Shown here: positions 41,391 to 53,502 of the stretch, piece after piece | How the letters are laid out: the number at the start of each line of letters is the position of its first letter | Numbering within the stretch: the first letter of the stretch is position 1 | Assembly (NCBI GenBank): GCA_045614565.1 | Contig: JAZLDG010000074.1 | Location: 38,561 to 102,560, forward strand | Direction: 5' to 3' | DNA length: 64,000 bases | Source of the DNA: Candidatus Scatosoma sp. | GTDB lineage: Bacteria > Bacillota > Clostridia > Christensenellales > Borkfalkiaceae | Made by a program: the position numbers and the translations under genes | Notes under the pieces: generated by a model | Told to the model about the DNA's origin: nothing | Seen by the model: only the letters and a program-made list of their open reading frames with translations | Database searches by the model: none

Positions 41391-41411
41391 CTTTTTCCCT
41401 TTTTGCTTAAT

Positions 41412-41455
41412 TGGTACTCCCGACGAGAATCGAACTCATAATTGTCCCTTAGGAG
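41412..41455 (-). pseudogene. orphaned 3' portion (44 nt, anticodon loop to CCA) of the host tRNA-Arg(CCU); attL-side junction
   Basis: Minus strand reads CTCCTAAGGGACAATTATGAGTTCGATTCTCGTCGGGAGTACCA. Its stems pair with the orphan 5' half at 48721..48758. Confidence 0.85.
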
Positions 41456-41682: not shown

Positions 41683-41711
41683 TTGAATTTTTTAGATGGA
41701 TATGCTATAAT
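41683..41711 (+). promoter_or_regulatory. sigma-70-type promoter of the island cargo operon
   Basis: TTGAAT (41683..41688), a 17-nt spacer, then TATAAT (41706..41711), about 40 nt before the XRE gene. Confidence 0.6.
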
Positions 41712-41749
41712 AGTAAAAACTGATTTTTTATTAAGGATGGTGCTATAAA

Positions 41750-41956
41750 ATGGCTGTCAGTTATAAAAAGCTATGGAAACTTTTAATTGATAAGGATATG
41801 AAGAAAAAAGACCTTCGTATTGCTACGGGTATGACTACTACTGCGCTTGCAAAACTCGGTAAAAACGAACACGTAAACACCGAAATTTTGGCTAAAATCT
41901 GCAAAGTTTTAGATTGCAATATAGAAGATATTGTGGAAGTTGTAGATGAAAAGTAA
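41750..41956 (+). CDS. XRE/Cro-family helix-turn-helix transcriptional regulator (68 aa)
   Basis: KKDLRIATGMTTTALAKLGKNEHVNTEILAKICKVLDCNIEDIV is the classic short HTH (YozG/HTH_26-like) pattern. Confidence 0.85.
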   Translation: MAVSYKKLWKLLIDKDMKKKDLRIATGMTTTALAKLGKNEHVNTEILAKICKVLDCNIEDIVEVVDEK

Positions 41957-42023
41957 AAACTTTTATAAATATGACAAGCGTTGTCGTATTTAGCGTAATA
42001 AAATTAATTTTATAGGTGAAATA

Positions 42024-42677
42024 ATGGCAGAAATGGTCTCTTGGATGAATGATAACAATGGCTTTATAATGGGGCTTTTAACTTTGGTATATGTTATAGC
42101 TACTATTTGTATCTGTGTTTTTAATTATAAATCAGCGACTGCGGCACGTAAACAAACTGAAACCCAAATAAATCAATTTAATGCAACGAATCGCCCTAAT
42201 ATTATTCCTTGTTTTACAATGATAGAAGGTGCAATGTTTTGTTTAACCTTCAAAAATATAGGAAACGAATGTGCAAAGAATCTAAAAATAACGATTAATA
42301 AGGAATGGTTTAATTGCTTTGATGAAGCGTTAAAACAAAAACAAATGCCCGGCAATATGAAAGAGTCCTTGCAAAACGAATTTTTTCTTCCCCCTAACGA
42401 TGATATTAAATTTGTTCTTATGATTCCAGGGGATGGTACAACAATGTATCAAGAACTTAGTAAAGAAAAAATAAAAATTCATTTATCATATAATCGAAAC
42501 AATTCCCAAGAATCTTTTAATGATGATTTTGAGTTGGATTTATTGGCAATGGCAGGATTGATACTTGATAAATCAGACTTTATTAGAAAAATGGAAAAAC
42601 AAGAAAAGGCATTAAAAGACATATCGAAAAATATTAAAAGCGTAGAAAAAGCAATTGCAAAGGAGAAAAACTTATGA
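42024..42677 (+). CDS. single-pass membrane protein of unknown function (217 aa)
   Basis: N-terminal TM helix FIMGLLTLVYVIATICICVF followed by a ~180-aa soluble domain. RBS AGGTGA. The stop overlaps the next start (ATGA at 42674..42677). Confidence 0.7.
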   Translation: MAEMVSWMNDNNGFIMGLLTLVYVIATICICVFNYKSATAARKQTETQINQFNATNRPNIIPCFTMIEGAMFCLTFKNIGNECAKNLKITINKEWFNCFDEALKQKQMPGNMKESLQNEFFLPPNDDIKFVLMIPGDGTTMYQELSKEKIKIHLSYNRNNSQESFNDDFELDLLAMAGLILDKSDFIRKMEKQEKALKDISKNIKSVEKAIAKEKNL

Positions 42678-44767
42678 AAGTAGAAAAATATAGAGTTCTT
42701 GGAGAGTTAATTGAGACGAATAAACGTCAATTTGTTATCCCTGTCTATCAAAGAAACTATGATTGGGGAAAACAACACTGCAAAAAACTTTATGACGATA
42801 TTATTTCTGCATATGAGTTAGATAGATTTCACTTTATCGGTTCAATCGTTTATGTCGACCAAGGTGAAGAAAATAAAATATATAGATATTTAATAATTGA
42901 CGGACAGCAAAGAATCACAACACTTTTTTTATTGCTCAAAGCTCTTCTTGATTCAACCGAAGACGAAAACCTTAAAAAAGAGTTTGAAGATATTCTTTTT
43001 AATATCGACAAATATAATGACTTAAAACTAACAGACCAAACAAAAATAAAGTTAAAGCCAATCAAAAGCGATAATGACCAATTTATGCTTTTGATGAAAA
43101 ATGATTTGCAAGCGATTGATAGAAGTTCAAACATTTTTATTAACTATGACTATATGAAAAAGTTGATTTCAAAATCAAACGCATTAGGTATAACAACTAA
43201 AGATATTTTGTCAGGTATCAAGAAATTAACTTCAGCAGTCATTATACTTGACCCAAAAGAAGATGAACCACAAGTGGTTTTTGAGTCTATCAACTCAACA
43301 GGGTTAGACCTTTCTCTTGCAGATTTAATTAGAAACTTTATTCTAATGACTGATAAAAATCAAGAAAAACTTTTTGAAGACTATTGGATTAAAATCGAAA
43401 ATAATGTTGGGCAAAATAAAATGCCCGCCTTTATTACGGATTTCTTGCAGTTTTCTTGTCGTGAGATTGTTTCCACTAAAAATGCTTATATTGTCTTTAA
43501 AAACTATTTTAAGACAGAGAATTTCTCTAATGAACAAATGTTAGAAAAGTTATTGCATTATTCTGCTTTCTACAAGGCATTTTTAGGCAATGATACACAA
43601 ACATATTCTCACATCGTAAACAAAAAATTGGCAGGATTTAATGCATTAGACCAAGGGACTATATATCAATTTTTATTCCACATTTTCGACGATTACGATG
43701 CAGGCATTATTTCAATTGAAGATTTAGAAAAGATTGTTACGTTCTTCTTTAATTATTTACTCCGTAGAATTGTTTGTGGGGTTGGCTCTAATAGTTTAAG
43801 AGGACTATATAAAACTCTATACAATAGAATTTTTGCCGATAAAAAGAATTTGGAAAATTACTACGACTCTATTATTCAATTCTTCTTACAGTTGAATACA
43901 AAGGATGCAGTTCCTTCTGATTCAGCGTTTAAGGATGCCTTAATAAACACTGATATTTATAACAAGAAAAACGTTTGTAAATATCTCTTAAAATCAATAG
44001 AAGATATTGCAGAAGATGGAAGTGAAAGCAAAGAGATATTAGACGTTTCCACTCTTTCTATTGAACATATAATGCCGCAAAAACTTTCAGATTATTGGCA
44101 AACAGCGCTCGGCAATAATTATGCCAAAATACACGAAAAATACTTACATAATCTCGGTAACTTAACGTTAACGGGTTATAATAGTGAATTAGGACAAAAA
44201 ACTTTTGACGAAAAGAAGCAATTAATCATAGATAAAAACTCTCATATTGTTGCTCTTAACAAAGATGTTTTATCTCAAACTTCTTGGGGCGAAAAAGAAA
44301 TTAAAAATCGTGCAGACCGCTTAAGTGCTATTTTATTAAAGTTATTCTATATTGATAAGCCGCAAAAATATATTCAATTTCAAAATGATACGGAAAGGCG
44401 TTATTCGGTTGGAGAAAACTTCGATGCTACGGGAACTAAGCCAAACACTTGCATTTTCTTTGGCAATACCTTAACGGTTAGTTCTTATGCAGACTTATTA
44501 TCAAAAGTTATGGAAGTGTTCTATGATTTAGATAACGATGTAATAAATGAATTAGCGAATAAAAATTACAAGTTAGCAAGCGCATCAAGAACATATATTA
44601 CCCACGATGCTGAAAAATTAAGAAAAGCTGTTGAAATTTACGAAACAGGCATATTTTTTGAATCAAATTTAAGTGCAAATAACATTATTTCTTTCTTAAA
44701 GAGTCTTTTAGATGTGTTTGAGCTTGATTATACCGAACTTGTAATTTGTGTAGATTCTAAACAATAA
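42674..44767 (+). CDS. DUF262/DUF1524 (GmrSD-like) nuclease-family protein with extra C-terminal region (697 aa)
   Basis: N-terminal DUF262 motifs FVIPVYQRNYDWGK and IIDGQQRITTLFLLL. The C-terminal His-Me/DUF1524-like motifs are LSIEHIMPQ and HNLGNLTLTGYNSELGQKTF. About 170 further residues of unknown type follow. Confidence 0.85.
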   Translation: MKVEKYRVLGELIETNKRQFVIPVYQRNYDWGKQHCKKLYDDIISAYELDRFHFIGSIVYVDQGEENKIYRYLIIDGQQRITTLFLLLKALLDSTEDENLKKEFEDILFNIDKYNDLKLTDQTKIKLKPIKSDNDQFMLLMKNDLQAIDRSSNIFINYDYMKKLISKSNALGITTKDILSGIKKLTSAVIILDPKEDEPQVVFESINSTGLDLSLADLIRNFILMTDKNQEKLFEDYWIKIENNVGQNKMPAFITDFLQFSCREIVSTKNAYIVFKNYFKTENFSNEQMLEKLLHYSAFYKAFLGNDTQTYSHIVNKKLAGFNALDQGTIYQFLFHIFDDYDAGIISIEDLEKIVTFFFNYLLRRIVCGVGSNSLRGLYKTLYNRIFADKKNLENYYDSIIQFFLQLNTKDAVPSDSAFKDALINTDIYNKKNVCKYLLKSIEDIAEDGSESKEILDVSTLSIEHIMPQKLSDYWQTALGNNYAKIHEKYLHNLGNLTLTGYNSELGQKTFDEKKQLIIDKNSHIVALNKDVLSQTSWGEKEIKNRADRLSAILLKLFYIDKPQKYIQFQNDTERRYSVGENFDATGTKPNTCIFFGNTLTVSSYADLLSKVMEVFYDLDNDVINELANKNYKLASASRTYITHDAEKLRKAVEIYETGIFFESNLSANNIISFLKSLLDVFELDYTELVICVDSKQ

Positions 44768-44783
44768 AACAAAGGAGAAAATT

Positions 44784-45008
44784 ATGTTTGACCCAAATTG
44801 GTATTATAACCCTAACTGTTTTAATCCACAAGCTTACGCTCAAATGCAAGCGCAACAACAATATGAGCAAGAACAGCAGAAAGATGTATATAACGCAATA
44901 AAAGCCTATAGCGATTTTCTAGATGCAATGGAAAAGTTAGACCCTGCGCATAAGCAAGATGTATTTCGCGGTTGTTTTGTTGAGATTGCTAAACGTATGC
45001 ATTGGTAA
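44784..45008 (+). CDS. small Q/N-rich hypothetical protein (74 aa)
   Basis: RBS AAAGGAG 7 nt upstream. The sequence is MFDPNWYYNPNCFNPQAYAQMQAQQQYEQEQQK... No family recognised. Confidence 0.6.
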   Translation: MFDPNWYYNPNCFNPQAYAQMQAQQQYEQEQQKDVYNAIKAYSDFLDAMEKLDPAHKQDVFRGCFVEIAKRMHW

Positions 45009-45051
45009 TTTTACACACAAAAAAATTGGTAAATAATATAGGAGAAAAGAA

Positions 45052-45747
45052 ATGCCCTTTAGTGAAAAAACAAAAGAAGACGCAATGATAGCGTGTGGGA
45101 GACACTGCTGCATCTGTCATAAGTTTTGTGGCAATAAAATGGAAGTCCATCATATAACTCCACAAAAAGATGGTGGTGAAGACACATTTGAAAACGCTAT
45201 TCCCCTTTGCTTTGATTGCCACGCCGAAGTGGGTGCGTATAATACAAGTCACCCTAAGGGTGTTAAGTTCTCTAAAACTGAATTAAAGCGCCATCGCGAT
45301 AATTGGTATAAATGTGTTAAGCAAGGTAATATAACAAGCGATACAATTCCACCGATGAAATTATTGCGTGAAGAAGGATTTAAAGAAACCCCACTCGTTC
45401 GCATAACATCAGGAATACAACTATTAAATGCGTTGAGTGGTTGTTGTGGAGCTCAATATAATTACGAAGAACCCAAAACGAGAGAAGAAGCATCAATTAT
45501 AAGCGAATTTCAAAAAGAAATGGAATATTTATCGGATGCGGATTCTCTTATCGAAGAAAGCGAAAGAGTTCTAATAGGGTTTGACTTAAATGACTTAATA
45601 ACTAAAATGGATGAGAAAGGTTTTTGGATTTTTATAGGAAGAGAAAATCGCGTCTTAACGGGTGGCGTAATCAAAGAGCCTGAAAGTTTTCCGATATTAC
45701 ATATTTACATTCTAAAAAAAGACAATATAACAATTAAAAATTGTTAA
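45052..45747 (+). CDS. HNH nuclease-domain protein with uncharacterised ~140-aa C-terminal domain
   Basis: CGRHCCICH...MEVHHITPQKDGGEDTFENAIPLCFDCHAEV follows the CxxC...HH...N...CxxCH HNH zinc-finger pattern. RBS AGGAG. Confidence 0.8.
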   Translation: MPFSEKTKEDAMIACGRHCCICHKFCGNKMEVHHITPQKDGGEDTFENAIPLCFDCHAEVGAYNTSHPKGVKFSKTELKRHRDNWYKCVKQGNITSDTIPPMKLLREEGFKETPLVRITSGIQLLNALSGCCGAQYNYEEPKTREEASIISEFQKEMEYLSDADSLIEESERVLIGFDLNDLITKMDEKGFWIFIGRENRVLTGGVIKEPESFPILHIYILKKDNITIKNC

Positions 45748-45830
45748 AATCTTTACAAAAGTAGGCAGATTCCCAAGAACGTGGGCGTTTGCCTATTAAA
45801 TTTTCACAACTCAATATATCTACCCTATTT

Positions 45831-45863
45831 AGGCGAGTGGAATTTGTTCTACTTGCCTTTTTT
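45831..45863 (+). terminator. intrinsic terminator closing the cargo operon
   Basis: AGGCGAGTGG-aatttgtt-CTACTTGCCT, a 10-bp stem with two G-U pairs, followed by TTTTT. Confidence 0.65.
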
Positions 45864-46365
45864 ATGTCCTAAAATTGCTTTCGTGGTTGTTTTTTTAAAA
45901 ATTTTTCAGCATTATAAAGTAGATGGGGTTGCAAAATGCAAAAAAAGTCAGGGATATATAATAGGAGGGTTATTTTCGCTTAAAAAATTCAGCAATATAA
46001 AGTGAGTGGTTGTTTTTTAAGAAAAAAGTAAGGAATATATAGTGTAAGGACAAACAAAAATATAACCGCTTGGTGCGGTGCGGAAATCAAAAAATTGTAA
46101 GCAGGATAAGAAAACCGCACCAAGTTGCAAATTTTCCTATTTTACCAAGCAGGTAAAGGAAAATGCAACAGGTCGCAGTTTCGACTTTTCAAACAATCGG
46201 GAAACCCGATTTTTGCTCTACTCCCCACCACCCAAACATTAACCACAAGGAGGAAAAATTTTATGAAAAATATTTTAGATTTTTATTAAAAACAGCTTGA
46301 CTTTGTTTGTTGAATATGATATTCGTATTAATACGACAATGCACTACGGTTAAGGAGATTTCAAA

Positions 46366-46686
46366 ATGAAAGAATTAACGTTAGAAGAAGTAATGGAATA
46401 TCAGCGAACACACCCACCCGTTAAGCACGTTTACGGCAGATGGGGAAACTTAAAAAAGCAATACTTAATAGACACGGGCAAAGATTGGCTGATTGCAGAT
46501 TTACCCACCTATCTTCACGGTATTGATAAAGCTGCCGAACAAATTTGGGAAGTTATGAGAGAAAAACTCTTAAAGCGCCCCGAATATAAAAAGACGGGCG
46601 AATTTATGCACGACGTTAAAATTGAAACGGAAATCAAAAACCGTATTGACGAAGAAATCTTAACCGAACTTATTTACGTGGATTAA
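46366..46686 (+). CDS. TnpV-like transposon-associated protein (106 aa)
   Basis: MKELT..., a central basic region and the C-terminal EEILTELIYV resemble clostridial TnpV proteins as I remember them. RBS AAGGAG. Confidence 0.55.
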   Translation: MKELTLEEVMEYQRTHPPVKHVYGRWGNLKKQYLIDTGKDWLIADLPTYLHGIDKAAEQIWEVMREKLLKRPEYKKTGEFMHDVKIETEIKNRIDEEILTELIYVD

Positions 46687-46699
46687 AGGAGAAAACACT

Positions 46700-46930
46700 A
46701 TGAATAGAAAAGAAGATACACCTATTAGAATTAGTCGTAGAACATACGAAGAAAAACACAAAGTAGAACGCAAAAAACTCAATAAGGTTTGGGGAACGAG
46801 CATCCCCCGTAAAGATGCTGAAAAAATTGATGCTTTCTTATCAAGCAAAGGATTATCAAAGGTAGATTTGATAATGGCAGGCTATGCAACGTTGATTGAG
46901 CAATTTGAAAGCAAGAAAAGTAATGATTAA
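46700..46930 (+). CDS. small basic protein (76 aa), possible recombination-directionality or DNA-binding factor
   Basis: Lys/Arg-rich N-terminus. The gene sits between the TnpV-like gene and the integrase with gaps of 11-13 nt. RBS AAAGGAG. Confidence 0.5.
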   Translation: MNRKEDTPIRISRRTYEEKHKVERKKLNKVWGTSIPRKDAEKIDAFLSSKGLSKVDLIMAGYATLIEQFESKKSND

Positions 46931-46941
46931 GGAGGAATTAT

Positions 46942-48360
46942 ATGGCTTATTTCAAAATAAGCACGGATAAAAAAGGAAAATTAAAAGCAAAAATACAAGC
47001 GCTTGGCAGAGACCCCGAGACGGACAAGCAAAAGGTTTGTTATAAATTGGTTAAAAACGATAACGACCTTACCCCGGCCAAGTTTCATAAGTACGTAGAA
47101 AAATGCGCTATTGAGTTCGAAGAAGAACTTGCAAAGGCTTATGAACTCAAAACCGACGTTAAAAAGTTGAAAGTTTTGACTTTTGACGAACTTGCAGCCG
47201 AGTGGCTTGAAAGTGTTAAAAAGAATTGGTCTATCAACTACTATTTAAGGGGAATTGGTATCACCAAAAAGTTTAGCGATTACTTGAAGAACAATAGACT
47301 TGCAGATAAACCCGTGAGTGAAATTACGGTTAGGCACGTTCAAATGTTTTTGAATAGTTTTGAGCAGAAAAACGGCAAACAAGACAACACTGTTTGCCTT
47401 AAAAAATACTTTCCAAACTCAATCAGTTTTAGAGCACTTGCAAGGGATAACGTTATAAATCGTTGTTCGTCATACGGACTTAAGAAAAAAGGCAATTACA
47501 TACTTCGTGAAACGGCAGAGAAAATTTGCGAAATTCACAACCTTGATTTCGACGAATATTTTAAGCCTAACGAAAGAAACAAAGCCTATTCAGCCGAAAC
47601 CATTAAAGGTTATAGAAGATTGCTTAGAACAGTATTTAACGAAGCCGTAAGATACGATTGGATAACGAAAAATCCCGTATGCGCTACAAAGGTTGGCTCA
47701 GGCAATAGCAACTCATCGCTTCGCCCCGTCAACGAAAAGGAAGTTTACTCAATAGCCGAAGCGCAAGAATTTATGAAAGCGCTTGACGAACTTCCCGAAG
47801 ATTTGATTTATAAGCGTGTACCGATAAAGTTTATGCTTCTTACGGGTGTGCGTGCAGGTGAACTTAACGGACTACGTTGGTCGGATATTGATTTTGACAA
47901 GCAAGTGGTTCATATTCGCAGAAATCGGCTTGTGGCGAAAGGTTACGGAATCTATGAGAAAGAACCCAAGACAAAGACTTCCACTCGAGATATACCCCTT
48001 CCAACGCCTTTAATTGACGATTTGAAGGAATATCGTGAGTGGTTTAGAGTAATCGACGACGAGTTTGATAATAATGTGGACGAATACTATTTTGCCGTCA
48101 ATATCTGCCGTGAACCCGTCTATCCACATACGGTTGGTGGTTGGCTTAAAAAGTTTCAAGACGACAAAGGTTTCAAGCGAGTTTGTTGTCACGGACTACG
48201 CCATACCTATTGCAGTTTGCTATTATCGCAAAACGTTCCCTTACAAACGGTTAGTAAATATATGGGACATAGCGACTCAACCATTACTTTGCAGGTTTAC
48301 AGTCACTTTATACCCGACACACAAGAAAAGGCGTTAAATGCACTAAATAACCTATTTTAG
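46942..48360 (+). CDS. int: tyrosine-type site-specific integrase
   Basis: N-terminal SAM-like/core-binding region plus a catalytic domain with LTGVRAGEL (Arg), HGLRHTYCS (H-x-x-R) and GHSDSTITLQVYSH (His...Tyr). Confidence 0.9.
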   Translation: MAYFKISTDKKGKLKAKIQALGRDPETDKQKVCYKLVKNDNDLTPAKFHKYVEKCAIEFEEELAKAYELKTDVKKLKVLTFDELAAEWLESVKKNWSINYYLRGIGITKKFSDYLKNNRLADKPVSEITVRHVQMFLNSFEQKNGKQDNTVCLKKYFPNSISFRALARDNVINRCSSYGLKKKGNYILRETAEKICEIHNLDFDEYFKPNERNKAYSAETIKGYRRLLRTVFNEAVRYDWITKNPVCATKVGSGNSNSSLRPVNEKEVYSIAEAQEFMKALDELPEDLIYKRVPIKFMLLTGVRAGELNGLRWSDIDFDKQVVHIRRNRLVAKGYGIYEKEPKTKTSTRDIPLPTPLIDDLKEYREWFRVIDDEFDNNVDEYYFAVNICREPVYPHTVGGWLKKFQDDKGFKRVCCHGLRHTYCSLLLSQNVPLQTVSKYMGHSDSTITLQVYSHFIPDTQEKALNALNNLF

Positions 48361-48409: not shown

Positions 48410-48507
48410 GTCTATGGGTGGATATAGTGGAATAGTTCAAAATTATTCCAAAAATGCCCGTTTTTTGCCCTAAAAATAGTAAAAAACCACAAAAAATGTG
48501 GTTTTTT

Positions 48508-48582
48508 TGGTAGTCCCTGCGGGAATCGAACCCACAACTAGCCCTTAGGAGGGGCTTGTTATATCCATTTAACTAAGGAACC
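48508..48582 (-). tRNA. island-borne complete tRNA-Arg (anticodon CCU), CCA-encoded
   Basis: Minus strand reads GGTTCCTTAGTTAAATGGATATAACAAGCCCCTCCTAAGGGCTAGTTGTGGGTTCGATTCCCGCAGGGACTACCA. It folds as a 75-nt cloverleaf with anticodon loop CTCCTAA. A hairpin with a T-run (48482..48507) follows it. Confidence 0.88.
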
Positions 48583-48720
48583 AAAATGGATAAAATTTAT
48601 TTTATTTTTATTCCTAAAATTATTCCTAAAACTTTTTAAGTCTTAAAAAGTGGCTATTTTCACTCGTTTTTACCATAAAAAGCATTGATTTTAGATATAT
48701 TAGACGGATAGACCAAGCGT

Positions 48721-48758
48721 TTAGGAGGGGACTGTTATATCCATTTAACTACGGAAGC
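48721..48758 (-). pseudogene. orphaned 5' portion (38 nt) of the host tRNA-Arg(CCU); attR-side junction
   Basis: Minus strand reads GCTTCCGTAGTTAAATGGATATAACAGTCCCCTCCTAA. Its acceptor and anticodon stems are complementary to the 3' fragment at 41412..41455. Confidence 0.85.
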
Positions 48759-48894: not shown

Positions 48895-51800
48895 TTATTC
48901 GCCGTCTTTTTTCAACGAAAGCATTTCGCCGTTCACTTCTATTTCGTCTTTTATCAGTCTTAACGCCGTTTCCATACGCTCCGTTAAGGCTTCCCCTGCG
49001 CGGGCAAAGCCAAGCTGCGAAGCAAGCAAACGGAACAAACCCGCTTTTTCCACCGTTACGTTTCTACGCAACAGCTCTTTAATCCCTGCAATCAGCTCCT
49101 GCAATTCAATATACTTGATATCCCGCGGCTCGTCGCCGTCCTTGGGCACGCGAAGCATCGGAACGGGTTTATTAATCAAATACAAAAATCCGTTCAAACG
49201 CACAATCCCCCAACGCTCGCAACCCTGCATGAGTTTGTTGAACTCGTCGTGCACGACGCCCGTCACCTTTTCCCGACCGCCAAACGCGAACACGATCCGT
49301 TTCAACAGCCATTCTTCGGAAACGGGAGCTTCCTTTTCCACGATCGCTCTCGTCATCTTCACGACGTCTTTTTTATACATTATACCAAGTCTGTTCTCGT
49401 CCAGCTTCTCATACTTGGGGAACTCGAAATGCTTTTCCTTGACCGCTTGTTCAAACGTCGTTTCCTTTTGCCCTTTGCTTTCCTTTTTCGGGGGATGCGC
49501 AATCGCGTACTTGACCGCCGTCAGCAAGCGTTCCTTTTCTACCCGTTTATTCGCAAACCAGTCGGTAGACCAAATACGGTAATACCGCCAGCCCATACGC
49601 TCCATAACTTCCTGCTGCAAGCGATCGCGATCTCTCGTCGTATGGGCGTCGCGATACGCCGCGCCGTCGCACTCGATCGCGAGCGCATATTCTTCCGTAT
49701 TCGGACGTTTGACCGCCAAATCGACCTTAAAGGACGAGCTTCCCAGCCGTTTTTCGACTTCAAAGCCTTCCGCCGTCAAAAAGTCGCAAATCTCCGCTTC
49801 CAAATCGGAATCGTGCGTAGCAAAAAGCTGCGTTTGCGACGTGGCGCGCGTAAGCGCGATATCGCCGTTTTCAGCGTAATCCAAATAATCCCGCAACAAT
49901 CTTGCTCCCACCGAGTTGGTACGCGAAATATCGATATCTCCGTAGTGCATAGACGAAACGAGCTGTACGTTATATTTCGCGCGCGTAACGGCAACGTTCA
50001 GGCGCCGTTCGCCGCCAGCACGGTTGACAGGGCCGAAATTGAGCAACAATTTCCCCTGCGCATCCTTGGCGTAAGCCACGCTGAAAATGATCACGTCGCG
50101 TTCGTCACCTTGTACCGTTTCCAAATTCTTGACGAAAAACGGCTCGCTGCGGTCGGATTTGAAAAACCAGTCCTTGGACGGGTCTTTTTTTCTGCGTTTG
50201 GTAATCAGTTTATCGATCAAGGTTTGTTGCGAAATACTAAACGCGACCACGCCGATACTTCTATCGGGATATTTTTCAATATTTTCAAACACGAGCTCGA
50301 CGACGCGTTCCGCTTCCAAGCGATTGGTTTTGCTCGTTCTGTCAAACACGCCGTCCACGTAAAAGTAATCGACGCCCAAGCCCTTTTTATCCTTTTGCGC
50401 CGAAGGGAAGGTCACAAGCTCTCCGTCGTAAAAATTCTCGTTAGAGAAGGAAATCAAGCGTTCAAAACGGCTTCTGTAATGCCATTTGAGCCGTCTTTGC
50501 GGGAAGGTCGTGGAGCAAAGATCCAAAATGGACTCGAAATCAGTAATATCTTCTTCTTCGCTATCGTCGAAATCGGCGGTGGAATTAAAGAAATTGCTCG
50601 GCGGCATTTGCTTGGAGTCGCCCACGACGATGAGCTGTTTTCCGCGATAAATCGCGCCGACCGCGTCCTGCGGGAAAATTTGCGAAGCTTCGTCGAATAC
50701 GACCACGTCAAATTGTATATCGGGGCTTAAAAAGGTACTTACGCTCAACGGCGACATCAAAAAGCAGGGTTTGAGCGTTTGTGCCAGCTCACCGATTTCC
50801 GACAGTAGCTGCCGTATGCCCTTTTGTTTGCGTTTTTTCTCGCCTTCGCGGAGCAAAATCGCAATACTGCTTCCTTGCGCGATCATATCCAAGGACGGTC
50901 TTTGCGCAGACAGCGTCGCTTTGATTTTCGCTTTATTGATATCGAAATGTAAATTGTCTTTTTCCTTGAACCGTTTTACCGTTTCGTCGTGCGGTATTCT
51001 TGCAAATTCCGCAAGCGCAGGCGTTTGGCCGAGTACCAAATCCGCCCATTGCGAATAGTAGGTTTTTTGGAACGTATCGCAAACGGCGGGGGCAGGTATG
51101 CGTTTATCAATGGTTTTATTGACGAACGTAAACAGCGACAAGGCTTTCAATTCGTCCAAAAGCTTCATAAACGAGCACCAGTGTCCAAGCTCGTCTACGC
51201 GGTCTAAACAGTCGCGGTATTTTTGCGTCAACGCGTCCAAAGGCGCGCGTTGCGTGTCGTACGCGTTCAAATCAAAGCGTTCTTTCAAACCTTTTTCCGC
51301 TTCGCCGTCCTTGGCAAACGCTTTTTCGTACGCGTCGAAAAATCTTGCAAACGAGCCGCGTTCGCTTTCAAATTCGCTCGGCGTATATTTTTGCAAACGC
51401 GCAAAGTCTACGTTTTCGGAATGAATTTCCGCCAACCGCGTCAATTCGTCGATCGCGCGCTTAAAATCCGTGTTGACCCCTGCGTAGTCCTTGCCCAACG
51501 CGTCCTTTACGCGATTTTCCAATTCGTCAAATTCGCGGAGCGTAGTTTGATACACGCAAAGATCGTCCATCGACGACACCGCTTTCTTATACGGGAGCTT
51601 TTTGCCGTTTCCCGTGCAGAAACGGATATCCTGCGCGATTGCTTTGTATTCCTTGGAAAACAAACGGGTGAAAAATCCGTCGTATTGCCGCGTTAATTTT
51701 TTATACAGTTCTTGTCCGTTGAGCTTATACACGTCTTGATCAAAGCGCATATCTAGCGCCTTTTTCTTTTGCAAAACGGTTTCGGCGAGCGTTTTCATCT

Positions 51801-53502
51801 TCCCACAAAGCTCTAATACGCGCGTATTTTCGCTTGATTTTAACAGCGTAGGCGTGATAAAACGCGCGTCTTTTAACAAGGCAAAGCATTTTTCAAGCGT
51901 TCGCGCGCCGTTTACGCCGTCTACGCACACGCCGTATTTGTCCTTGACGCTGTCGCGTAAAATCACGAGCGTATCGCAAAGGCTGATTGCGCCTTGAAAC
52001 TCCGCTTTGAGCTTGGTTACGGACGGATAGGAATAATCCCCGTCAACGTAACCGTACCAAACGTTCTTACGGTAGTCGTAGCCCACGGACTCGGTATATT
52101 CCGCGTATCGCGTCAACGCCGTTTCCGCTTTTTCGCCGTATTCTTCGCCCTTGCTAGGCAAATCCGAAATCACGAAATCCATCGTAGGCGCGTTTCGCCG
52201 CGCCGCGATTTCTTCAAATAAGCGGTACGCCGATTTATTGATAATCGGGCGGGGCGCGTGCAATTCTTTGGCGTATTCGTCCAAGCGTTCTTGCGCTTCT
52301 TTTTTCAGCCGAATTTCCCGATCCGCTTTATCCGAAACGCCGCTTTTTTGCAACTTCAAGGTATGGCAAAGCTCTTCGATAACCTGCTTTTTATTGGCTT
52401 TATGGCTGTGCAATTCCAAACAAAATTCTTCCAAGCCAACTTTTTTTAATTTATCGTATACGACGCTCAACGCCGCGAGTTTTTCAGAAACGAACAATAC
52501 CTTTTTTCCGTCGCCCATACATTCGGCGATGATATTCGTGATCGTTTGACTCTTGCCCGTTCCCGGAGGCCCTTGCAAGACGAAGCTTTCGCCTGCTTTG
52601 GCAAGCGCAATCGCTTCCCCTTGGCTGGAATCGGCGTCTACGACGTTACGCAAAGACAAAAGGTCGGGGGCAGGTATGCGTTCATTGTCCGTTTGTTCCA
52701 CCTTTTCGCCAAGCAAAGCGCGAATACAAGCGTTTTGCGCGATCTTGGGCGCGTTATCCTTTAAGTCCTTGTACATATTGATTTTCAAAAAAGAAAACGT
52801 ACCGATTTTACATTCCGTCGTCACCGTCCACTTCAACCGCGAAACGACGTCTTGTATCCGCAAGAAATACCCTTCGATCCCTTCGTCTTCGTCGTATTCG
52901 GGAAGCTTCACGCCGAACTCGTTTTGGAGCTTAAAGGAAAAAGTCGGATTGACGATCACTTCGTCGTCCGTTACGCGTACGTAGCAAGGCTCGACGGGAG
53001 ATTCGTTTTCAATGCAAACAGGAGCGAGCAAAATGGGCGCGCGCATACTCGTGGGCGCGTTTTCGTTTTCCCGCCAGTGAATAAAACCGAATGCAAGATA
53101 GGCGATATTGACGCCCGTTTCTTCCATTGCACTACGCGCTTTTTTACCGATGTTTTTCAGGGCTTGAATGGGTTTATTTTCGCTGTTATATACGAGAATT
53201 TGACGGTTTTTCACCTTTTTACGATAGGCGAGCAAATATTCGCCCTTGGTGATTTTTTGTTCTACACTTTCCCCGTCCCAAAGCGTGGTGGGAAGCGTAT
53301 AATCTTCGTCGTCTTCTTGCTTGGGATCGTATACTTCAAAGACGGCGGAATGTTCCGCGCGAGAAAATACCGTCGCAAAATCGGGATAGACGATTTCCGC
53401 CGTTCCCGTTTTCGTGTCCTTGAAATTGATCAAATTATTCCCCTTGCCCGTATCCAGCAATAAATCCGCCCATACGTGCAGTTTCTCCGTTCCCTTACTC
53501 AT
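48895..53502 (-). CDS. 1535-aa DUF4011-like / Upf1-like SF1 helicase / Vsr-DUF559-like endonuclease / DUF3320-like protein (Hhe-like)
   Basis: Helicase motifs: Walker A LQGPPGTGKSQT, motif II VVVFDEASQI, then LIVVGDSKQMPP, VQGDERDVIIFS and RLNVAVTRAK. The endonuclease-fold segment is FKVDLAV...ALAIECDGAAYRD...RDRLQQEVMERMGWRYYRIWSTDW. The long N- and C-terminal extensions fit DUF4011 and DUF3320 by layout. Confidence 0.8.
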   Translation of the reverse strand: MSKGTEKLHVWADLLLDTGKGNNLINFKDTKTGTAEIVYPDFATVFSRAEHSAVFEVYDPKQEDDEDYTLPTTLWDGESVEQKITKGEYLLAYRKKVKNRQILVYNSENKPIQALKNIGKKARSAMEETGVNIAYLAFGFIHWRENENAPTSMRAPILLAPVCIENESPVEPCYVRVTDDEVIVNPTFSFKLQNEFGVKLPEYDEDEGIEGYFLRIQDVVSRLKWTVTTECKIGTFSFLKINMYKDLKDNAPKIAQNACIRALLGEKVEQTDNERIPAPDLLSLRNVVDADSSQGEAIALAKAGESFVLQGPPGTGKSQTITNIIAECMGDGKKVLFVSEKLAALSVVYDKLKKVGLEEFCLELHSHKANKKQVIEELCHTLKLQKSGVSDKADREIRLKKEAQERLDEYAKELHAPRPIINKSAYRLFEEIAARRNAPTMDFVISDLPSKGEEYGEKAETALTRYAEYTESVGYDYRKNVWYGYVDGDYSYPSVTKLKAEFQGAISLCDTLVILRDSVKDKYGVCVDGVNGARTLEKCFALLKDARFITPTLLKSSENTRVLELCGKMKTLAETVLQKKKALDMRFDQDVYKLNGQELYKKLTRQYDGFFTRLFSKEYKAIAQDIRFCTGNGKKLPYKKAVSSMDDLCVYQTTLREFDELENRVKDALGKDYAGVNTDFKRAIDELTRLAEIHSENVDFARLQKYTPSEFESERGSFARFFDAYEKAFAKDGEAEKGLKERFDLNAYDTQRAPLDALTQKYRDCLDRVDELGHWCSFMKLLDELKALSLFTFVNKTIDKRIPAPAVCDTFQKTYYSQWADLVLGQTPALAEFARIPHDETVKRFKEKDNLHFDINKAKIKATLSAQRPSLDMIAQGSSIAILLREGEKKRKQKGIRQLLSEIGELAQTLKPCFLMSPLSVSTFLSPDIQFDVVVFDEASQIFPQDAVGAIYRGKQLIVVGDSKQMPPSNFFNSTADFDDSEEEDITDFESILDLCSTTFPQRRLKWHYRSRFERLISFSNENFYDGELVTFPSAQKDKKGLGVDYFYVDGVFDRTSKTNRLEAERVVELVFENIEKYPDRSIGVVAFSISQQTLIDKLITKRRKKDPSKDWFFKSDRSEPFFVKNLETVQGDERDVIIFSVAYAKDAQGKLLLNFGPVNRAGGERRLNVAVTRAKYNVQLVSSMHYGDIDISRTNSVGARLLRDYLDYAENGDIALTRATSQTQLFATHDSDLEAEICDFLTAEGFEVEKRLGSSSFKVDLAVKRPNTEEYALAIECDGAAYRDAHTTRDRDRLQQEVMERMGWRYYRIWSTDWFANKRVEKERLLTAVKYAIAHPPKKESKGQKETTFEQAVKEKHFEFPKYEKLDENRLGIMYKKDVVKMTRAIVEKEAPVSEEWLLKRIVFAFGGREKVTGVVHDEFNKLMQGCERWGIVRLNGFLYLINKPVPMLRVPKDGDEPRDIKYIELQELIAGIKELLRRNVTVEKAGLFRLLASQLGFARAGEALTERMETALRLIKDEIEVNGEMLSLKKDGE

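Follow-up and report, generated by a model that had tools for sequence, protein, structure and literature searches.

The window analysed here, a 64,000-nucleotide (nt) stretch of contig JAZLDG010000074.1 of Candidatus Scatosoma sp., carries between positions 41683 and 45863 an operon of five genes, coding for a 68-amino-acid (aa) XRE regulator, a 217-aa membrane protein, a 697-aa GmrSD-type nuclease, a 74-aa Gln/Asn-rich protein and a 231-aa HNH protein. A preliminary description of this DNA had proposed that the five genes form one undescribed multi-component defence system, and the question raised by the locus is whether they work as one system or as separate units placed side by side. As judged from their sequences and genomic contexts, the five genes are almost certainly the anti-phage cargo of a small mobile island, and we consider it probable that they are exchangeable defence modules stacked on a small integrative element, among which the GmrSD protein would be a type IV enzyme sufficient by itself and the remaining genes would be independent add-ons.

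All five open reading frames (ORFs) were found on the + strand where they had been placed before, separated by gaps of 67, -4, 16 and 43 nt, the stop codon of the 217-aa gene overlapping the start codon of the GmrSD gene (ATGA). Loci carrying relatives of the window genes were fetched and are designated by numbers with the prefix L. The features of the operon were as follows:

41683..41711, + strand, promoter-like site TTGAAT-17-TATAAT with an extended -10 TG, within the 360-nt gap 5' of the XRE gene
41750..41956, + strand, 68-aa XRE/HTH_26 regulator (HTH_26, 6e-19), probable controller of the cargo operon
42024..42677, + strand, 217-aa single-pass membrane protein predicted to have an N-terminal transmembrane helix, an Ig-like beta-sandwich and a long C-terminal helix (AF2 pLDDT 80)
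42674..44767, + strand, 697-aa GmrSD/HEC-06-type enzyme with a DUF262 NTPase, a DUF1524 His-Me nuclease and a C-terminal extension of ~140 aa (Pfam, PADLOC)
44784..45008, + strand, 74-aa Gln/Asn-rich small protein, a floating gene ahead of varied effector genes (18 homologue clusters)
45052..45747, + strand, 231-aa protein with an N-terminal zinc-finger HNH domain (residues 1-~95; HNH, 4.1e-10) and an uncharacterised C-terminal domain (C-domain, residues ~101-231; AF2 pLDDT 84)
45762..45795, + strand, conserved hairpin directly 3' of the HNH gene, within the shared HNH module 45041-45804, kept in the window, L025 and L031
45831..45863, + strand, intrinsic terminator closing the operon and the shared cassette (12-bp stem plus T-run)

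The G+C content of the operon (0.29-0.34) was below that of both flanks (0.41-0.45 on the left and about 0.49-0.51 on the right), in agreement with the AT-richness noted earlier, and the XRE, DUF262/DUF1524 and HNH domains, as well as the motifs reported for them, were recovered with Pfam and a motif search. The proposed promoter is present and has an extended -10 TG, but promoter-like sites occurred at 36 per 10 kb against 29.8 +/- 4.8 in shuffled sequences, so that the motif alone is at chance level. The terminator was substantiated, since the hairpin at 45831-45858 plus its T-run was the top of the 17 terminator-like sites of the region (9.6 +/- 3.3 expected), and L025 keeps this hairpin through pair-preserving changes.

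Conservation of the gene set was then compared among the fetched loci. Contig look-ups with the exact sequences of the GmrSD and 217-aa proteins of the window, and of another protein, P0001, gave no match, the nearest hits being contigs from human-gut metagenomes and from Clostridia/Christensenella metagenome-assembled genomes. The first 24 of them, all with relatives of the 217-aa protein and representing at least five distinct contexts, had no relative of the GmrSD, 74-aa, HNH or XRE genes. The block containing the GmrSD, 74-aa and HNH genes and the terminator (42661-45883) showed 93.7% nt identity to L025, where a Bro-N/Fic gene was found instead of the membrane gene and a serine recombinase instead of the integrase, and L044 kept the membrane gene (88% identical), with HipA-like and 259-aa genes in the place of XRE. 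Co-occurrence was limited to loci with 98-100% identical GmrSD (L025, L026, L044 and L046), and the partners were swapped even there. The same gene order was not found in distantly related genomes: apart from near-identical copies of one cassette, homologues of the five genes did not co-occur, an outcome that the preliminary description itself had named as speaking against its proposal.

An obligate five-part system, with GmrSD dependent on the membrane protein, the 74-aa protein and the HNH nuclease, would be consistent with the single operon, the one promoter-like site, the one strong terminator and the short or overlapping gaps, and with the order membrane gene, GmrSD, 74-aa gene and HNH gene, which was found again in L044 and L046. 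However, the GmrSD copies of this recurrence are 98-100% identical, suggesting that it reflects one lineage, in which Fic had replaced the membrane gene (L025) and a HipA-like gene the XRE gene (L044). Each one of the partners was also found in unrelated operons devoid of GmrSD, and HEC-06 works alone. The single undescribed system proposed for this operon is, for these reasons, very improbable.

The 697-aa protein itself is, by its domain content, a type IV restriction enzyme of the GmrSD/HEC-06 type. Pfam detected GmrSD_N (2.4e-34) at residues 9-223 and GmrSD_C (3.1e-25) at residues 414-552, and the motifs YQRNYDW, DGQQR, EHIMP and GNLTL were located at residues 25, 76, 464 and 495, respectively. 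The PADLOC model HEC-06 matched residues 7-557 (1.1e-66) and the model 'Orf5' matched up to residue 558 (2e-126), whereas the SspE models covered just the N-terminal ~100 residues. Among the other island proteins, neither PADLOC nor Pfam found partners of the kind of the BREX-associated BrxU, the Ssp-associated SspE or the two-protein TgvAB, and no methylase domain was present in the eight island proteins scanned, as had been described. Full-length homologues with 30% identity, including the C-terminal extension, were solitary genes annotated as 'DUF262 domain-containing protein' in plasmids of Lactobacillaceae. HEC-06 has been shown experimentally to defend alone and to lose its activity when DGQQR or EH is mutated (Payne et al. 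2024, bioRxiv 10.1101/2024.01.29.577857). Because HEC-06 is self-sufficient and the plasmid homologues are solitary, the 697-aa gene seems to be a new member of a known, self-sufficient family.

Variants of this gene were also observed. In L046 (3248-4423) a deletion appears to have produced a variant in which the start of the membrane protein and the C-terminal part of GmrSD form a single 571-aa ORF. In the GmrSD cluster at 90% identity, many members were just 328 aa long, suggesting that truncated or split copies are common in gut metagenomes.

The two small genes were found in several other arrangements. Relatives of the XRE regulator, with 56-94% identity, head five different cargo operons. 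The leader containing this gene (41699-41992) showed 92.6% nt identity to positions 1-293 of L028, where it heads the gene of a DUF4011 helicase (1549 aa), behind which lies a 76%-identical homologue of the 74-aa protein, and XRE relatives with 56-66% identity head Vsr/Dcm/HpaII/HNH and Eco57I-methylase/PstI/68aa/HNH operons. The regulator and its promoter may be a generic leader of cargo genes. The 74-aa protein had no match in Pfam. Its exact sequence was present on 207 contigs, and its relatives stand ahead of a 277-aa gene and a trypsin-like protease (L127) or ahead of a 296-aa gene and a multi-pass membrane protein (L128), as would be expected of a small floating gene, possibly with a regulatory role, that precedes varied effector genes. 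A weak PADLOC match of this protein (6e-5) to the C-terminal region of the short-Argonaute model 'Aga_REase-PNTD1-PNTD2' is probably compositional, given its Gln/Asn-rich sequence; the same model strongly matched the SMEK-type N-terminal region (residues 1-231) of another protein, P0182.

As proposed before, the 217-aa protein appears to be a single-pass membrane protein with no recognisable domain, because it has a single strongly hydrophobic segment (about residues 14-33) and no match in Pfam, NCBIfam or PADLOC. In its predicted structure the membrane span lies inside the long N-terminal helix and the Ig-like sandwich comprises residues 60-171; the model had generic Ig-like or pilin matches only in the PDB, and in BFVD it matched uncharacterised phage transmembrane proteins (~3e-6). 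The positive charges following the membrane span suggest that the beta-sandwich is probably cytoplasmic. Just 24 homologues were found in 5.8 billion clusters. Relatives with 66-68% identity were located in L001 after a Metallophos/HD protein and ahead of two methylases, and in L007 another relative stood between the DUF4391 and Mod genes of an SNF2/type III operon, where stop and start codons overlapped. More distant relatives were found in type I surroundings, either in the HsdS/HsdR interval (L020), after HsdS (L021) or beside a fragment of HsdR (L016), and downstream of Mrr-type genes, in L013 after an Mrr enzyme and in L015 immediately following a fusion of methylase and Mrr; two were found off restriction loci, one by terminase genes of a prophage (L017) and the other beside PEPCK (L014). 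Viral contigs contained only two distant relatives of this protein and none of the 74-aa protein, and a tblastn search of phage GenBank found none. The contexts are consistent with a family whose genes have been inserted time and again into different types of restriction locus, in most cases with the stop codon of one gene overlapping the start codon of the next, and the 217-aa protein may perhaps act as an independent membrane-associated exclusion or abortive-infection gene.

The family of the 231-aa HNH protein was larger, with 852 homologues, mostly of 230-240 aa. C19, C22, H23, H33, H34, N48, C53, C56 and H57 were invariant in 37 sequences of the family, and in a Foldseek search with the predicted structure the HNH part alone matched PDB entries (EcoKMcrA, ScoMcrA and IscB). 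The predicted fold, the catalytic His and Asn residues and the zinc-binding Cys pairs together indicate a probable HNH (His-Me finger) nuclease. Two more specific identities were considered and rejected: an McrA-like reader of 5-methylcytosine (5mC), because in L031 and L036 relatives of the HNH protein have Dcm methylases as neighbours, so that 5mC is an improbable target, and an IscB-like protein, because just the HNH motif matched (NCBIfam, 35 bits against a cutoff of 175).

The gene contexts of the HNH family were collected from 80 loci of a metagenome scan plus the loci obtained earlier, which gave 88 proteins in 25 clusters at 90% identity. Restriction genes adjoined the HNH gene in 13 of the 25 clusters. 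In nine clusters it was located directly after a type III Mod gene, usually 1 nt past its stop codon, with its own stop codon overlapping Res, which was found downstream wherever the contig extended, and the Mod genes of these clusters had diverged to 46-61% identity. The type III neighbours were confirmed with Pfam and PADLOC (MTase_III, 7e-215; REase_III, 3e-286), and SNF2 and DUF4391 genes were found upstream. Four more clusters followed HpaII-, BpuJI- or PstI-type type II systems or GmrSD, and in L031 the HNH module 45041-45804 was present at 79.6% nt identity after a Dcm/BpuJI/Dcm system. Several other clusters were accompanied by DUF2992 on Mob_Pre elements.

This tight association raised the possibility that the accessory genes (the 217-aa and HNH genes and perhaps the 74-aa gene) act by way of the restriction enzyme beside them, as guards or back-ups that could fire, for instance, when a phage inhibits or evades it, like PrrC in type I loci. 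The accessory genes are packed closely with many types of restriction gene, and the codons at the junctions frequently overlap; the Mod-HNH-Res order was kept while Mod diverged to 46-61% identity, and PrrC and other embedded genes are known precedents. The neighbours, however, are mechanistically unrelated (types I, II, III and IV and Mrr), so that direct physical sensing of all of them is improbable; relatives of the HNH protein also occur with DUF2992 on Mob_Pre elements and outside restriction contexts, and relatives of the 217-aa protein stand by the phage terminase and PEPCK genes mentioned above. We regard the guard explanation as unlikely, and continue to favour independent add-on genes.

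Some further arrangements of this family were recorded. In L064, L092, L096, L106, L116 and L119, the HNH-family gene recurrently forms a pair with a 138-aa DUF2992 gene, the two sharing one base at the start of the HNH-family gene, and the Mob_Pre elements concerned also carry a GNAT acetyltransferase. The SNF2/DUF4391/Mod/Res operon family (L007, L051, L059, L083 and L114) has two recurrent insertion slots, one between DUF4391 and Mod, which contained a relative of the membrane protein, PDC-S32/AbiJ_NTD4 or uncharacterised 156-, 603- or 719-aa genes, and the other between Mod and Res, which contained the HNH family or a pair of 138-aa and 339-aa genes, the latter with a weak match to nucleoside deoxyribosyltransferase. 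In some type III operons a GmrSD-like 585-aa gene was found in the upstream place of SNF2. Finally, L124, from a plasmid of Candidatus Manganitrophus (CP114559.1, 7001-7933), encodes a 310-aa HNH protein whose first 99 residues are 48.5% identical to the window protein and whose C-terminal part is unmatched; its gene adjoins toprim and helicase genes that resemble the Gabija pair.

The C-domain of the 231-aa protein had no match in Pfam and none in the PDB by fold or profile, the whole-model Foldseek search being dominated by the HNH domain. When residues 101-231 were compared by phmmer with 1.84 billion representatives, 188 proteins were found at E<=1e-3, and at least 60 residues preceded the C-domain in 85 of the best 150 matches. 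The N-terminal partners were assigned by local comparison and counted as clusters. The most frequent was an HNH_2-type nuclease, of the kind that CBASS HNH-SAVED effectors employ (52 clusters), followed by an XRE-type HTH (16-18 clusters), the HNH of the window type (4 clusters), a TIR domain of the CAP12/Pycsar type (2 clusters) and CHAT, Schlafen AlbA_2 (SLFN_AlbA_2) and SMEK_N, with 1 cluster each. Known immune proteins offer a comparison for this repertoire: SMEK, HNH and DUF4365 are nuclease effectors of short Argonaute systems (PMC10810196), and in bacterial Schlafens an effector is joined to one of various sensors (PMC13056530). By analogy, the partners suggest that the C-domain occupies the place held by sensor or regulatory domains in known single-chain immune proteins. 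The HTH-fused C-domain proteins included P0254, P0172 and P0241, together with about 15 more representatives, the HTH of P0254 matching PADLOC capH at 4e-8, and these fusions imply that the C-domain may also serve in transcription regulators.

The distribution of these domains bears on another explanation, in which the XRE, 74-aa and HNH genes are the backbone of small mobilisable elements, serving regulation or the nicking and homing needed for cassette exchange or transfer, and bracket a variable cargo slot, the HNH protein being a selfish or mobility nuclease. An XRE gene on the 5' side and an HNH gene on the 3' side do bracket four cargoes (those of the window, L025, L036/L072 and L053) on Mob_Pre, relaxase or recombinase elements, and the boundaries of the modules coincide exactly with gene ends. 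Some homing endonucleases likewise have an N-terminal HNH followed by an extra C-terminal domain. Against this, the nine HNH clusters located between type III mod and res had no mobility genes called among the immediate flanking genes, the XRE of L028 heads a cargo in which no HNH gene was seen, on a contig that ends just past the 74-aa gene, and a C-domain common to TIR, CHAT, Schlafen and SMEK effectors and CBASS-type HNH modules would be unexpected for homing or transfer. A backbone role of these three genes is, in our opinion, highly unlikely.

For the preferred reading, a stack of separate modules, the following mechanism may be proposed. The main effector would be the GmrSD/HEC-06-type enzyme, whose DUF262 domain, by analogy with HEC-06, BrxU and GmrSD, would use a nucleoside triphosphate through DGQQR, and whose DUF1524 His-Me domain (EHIMP...N) would cut modified phage DNA with no need of a methyltransferase or a partner, as expected from its family. 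The 231-aa HNH protein may be a self-contained effector, the active-looking nuclease of which would be gated by the C-domain through sensing or oligomerisation, adding a second layer of defence beside restriction enzymes. As a tentative extension, which we hold with somewhat less than even confidence, the C-domain would be an undescribed regulatory or sensor domain recombined with HNH, TIR, CHAT, Schlafen, SMEK and HTH modules, and the HNH and 217-aa families would be two new stand-alone anti-phage genes that nest as a second layer in type I-IV restriction loci.

Several observations weigh against these proposals. The order membrane gene, GmrSD, 74-aa gene and HNH gene does recur in L044 and L046, and together with the ATGA overlap it suggests that some functional coupling is possible. 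The arrangement Mod-HNH-Res was stable over deep divergence, and the HNH protein could work with the neighbouring restriction enzyme. The type I examples of the 217-aa family (L020 and L021) show similarity to the window protein over the N-terminal 90-130 residues only, about 12 of the 25 HNH clusters had unannotated neighbours, and the context loci include many short contigs assembled from metagenomes of similar gut samples, with genes called by simple ORF picks. Because of the HTH fusions, plain and possibly regulated dimerisation or oligomerisation is an equally good reading of the C-domain.

The element that carries these genes had been described as a small integrase-borne island with the operon as its only cargo. 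A small integrase island was indeed found, but besides the operon it contains a complete tRNA of its own as well as a TnpV-like and a 76-aa gene, as listed below:

41411..41455, - strand, displaced 3' half of the apparent ancestral host tRNA-Arg(CCT), at the left end of the island (80% identical to 48507-48551)
46366..46930, + strand, island backbone with a TnpV-like 106-aa gene (TnpV, 2e-7) and a 76-aa gene
46942..48360, + strand, tyrosine integrase (Phage_integrase, 6e-23; phrog_1, 4.5e-70)
48508..48582, - strand, complete tRNA-Arg(CCT), apparently island-borne, with its 5' end unpaired with the displaced 3' half at 41411-41455
48716..48758, - strand, 5' half of the apparent ancestral host tRNA-Arg(CCT), at the right end of the island (79% repeat of 48540-48601)

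A tyrosine recombinase by a tRNA gene and tRNA segments duplicated at both ends are the marks of a tRNA-targeting integrative element. When 41411-41445 and 48716-48758 were joined at their shared anticodon-loop motif, the product was a valid tRNA-Arg(CCT), the acceptor stem of which paired perfectly. Since the outer halves rebuild a valid tRNA and the left half mispairs with the 5' end of the intact gene, it appears that an element of ~7.3 kb split the host tRNA-Arg(CCT) in the anticodon loop and brought a complete replacement copy. Relatives of the 76-aa gene stand 5' of recombinases in L025, L031 and L044. An Rfam scan of the island gave matches to tRNA only, the remaining ones being under the threshold.

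Just beyond the island, on the - strand (48895-53502), lies a gene for a putative 1535-aa helicase that is 61% identical to the 1549-aa DUF4011/AAA_11/AAA_12/MTES_1575 helicase of L028. The latter is mobile cargo, with a 94%-identical XRE ahead of it and the 74-aa homologue behind it.

Between the operon and the TnpV-like gene there is a 620-nt non-coding stretch that contains three imperfect copies of a ~38-nt repeat (GTGGTTGTTTTTT...ATATAAAGT), at 45883-46043 and 46091-46225, and a 135-nt block of this stretch is common to L025 (71%). These elements could be arm sites of the recombinase, an origin of transfer (oriT) or a regulatory region. An alignment of the non-coding DNA following the HNH gene in three loci, made with respect to an RNA or oriT, showed that only two hairpins and some blocks of the backbone are shared.

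Dropping the idea of a five-gene system saves effort on a wrong model. The locus is a clear example of how defence cargo is assembled in small integrative or mobilisable elements of gut Firmicutes, with whole genes swapped between an XRE leader and an HNH gene that are both conserved. It also draws attention to two uncharacterised families with strong guilt-by-embedding evidence over four classes of restriction system; no candidate model of PADLOC v2 matched either of them beyond the generic HNH motif. These families and the shuffled C-domain, absent from Pfam, the PDB and PADLOC v2 as far as testable, are the sole part of the locus with real discovery potential. The C-domain is common to many types of immune effector, and knowledge of its trigger or of the way it oligomerises could show how a whole group of single-chain effectors is turned on.

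With regard to known systems, the window enzyme resembles the HEC-06/GmrSD family in being a single polypeptide with DUF262 (DGQQR) and DUF1524 (EHxxP...N), with no methyltransferase and on mobile DNA. It differs from that family by a C-terminal extension of ~140 residues that matches no domain but is present in the plasmid homologues too, and from its GmrSD, BrxU and SspE relatives by lying outside Hma, BREX and Ssp loci. The operon is similar to restriction cassettes controlled by C proteins in that a small HTH gene heads restriction operons on mobilisable elements, but the regulator family of the window also heads a methylase-free type IV enzyme and a helicase.

EcoKMcrA and ScoMcrA were the best structural matches of the HNH domain (6ghc, 4e-3; 5zmm), with a zinc-finger HNH in both; their HNH is C-terminal, in contrast to the N-terminal one of the 231-aa protein, and the other domain of the latter is unlike the domains that read 5mC or phosphorothioate. 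Single-chain proteins joining an effector to a sensor (Schlafen fusions, CBASS HNH-SAVED and the APAZ proteins of short prokaryotic Argonaute systems) share with the 231-aa family the combination of a nuclease with a second domain and the same effector repertoire (TIR, CHAT, SLFN, SMEK and HNH_2), but the C-domain is neither SAVED nor APAZ and is also fused to an XRE-type HTH.

The embedding of genes in immune operons is an already published concept, with precedents in 'guilt-by-embedding' (Payne et al. 2024), in PrrC of type I loci and in TgvAB of a type I locus of V. cholerae. Like these, relatives of the 217-aa and 231-aa proteins were found between type I or type III restriction-modification genes, often translationally coupled, and the embedding between known immune genes was seen in related loci (L007, L020 and the type III Mod/Res operons). 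In the window, in contrast, the 217-aa and 231-aa genes flank a single-gene type IV enzyme and are not nested in a multi-gene system.

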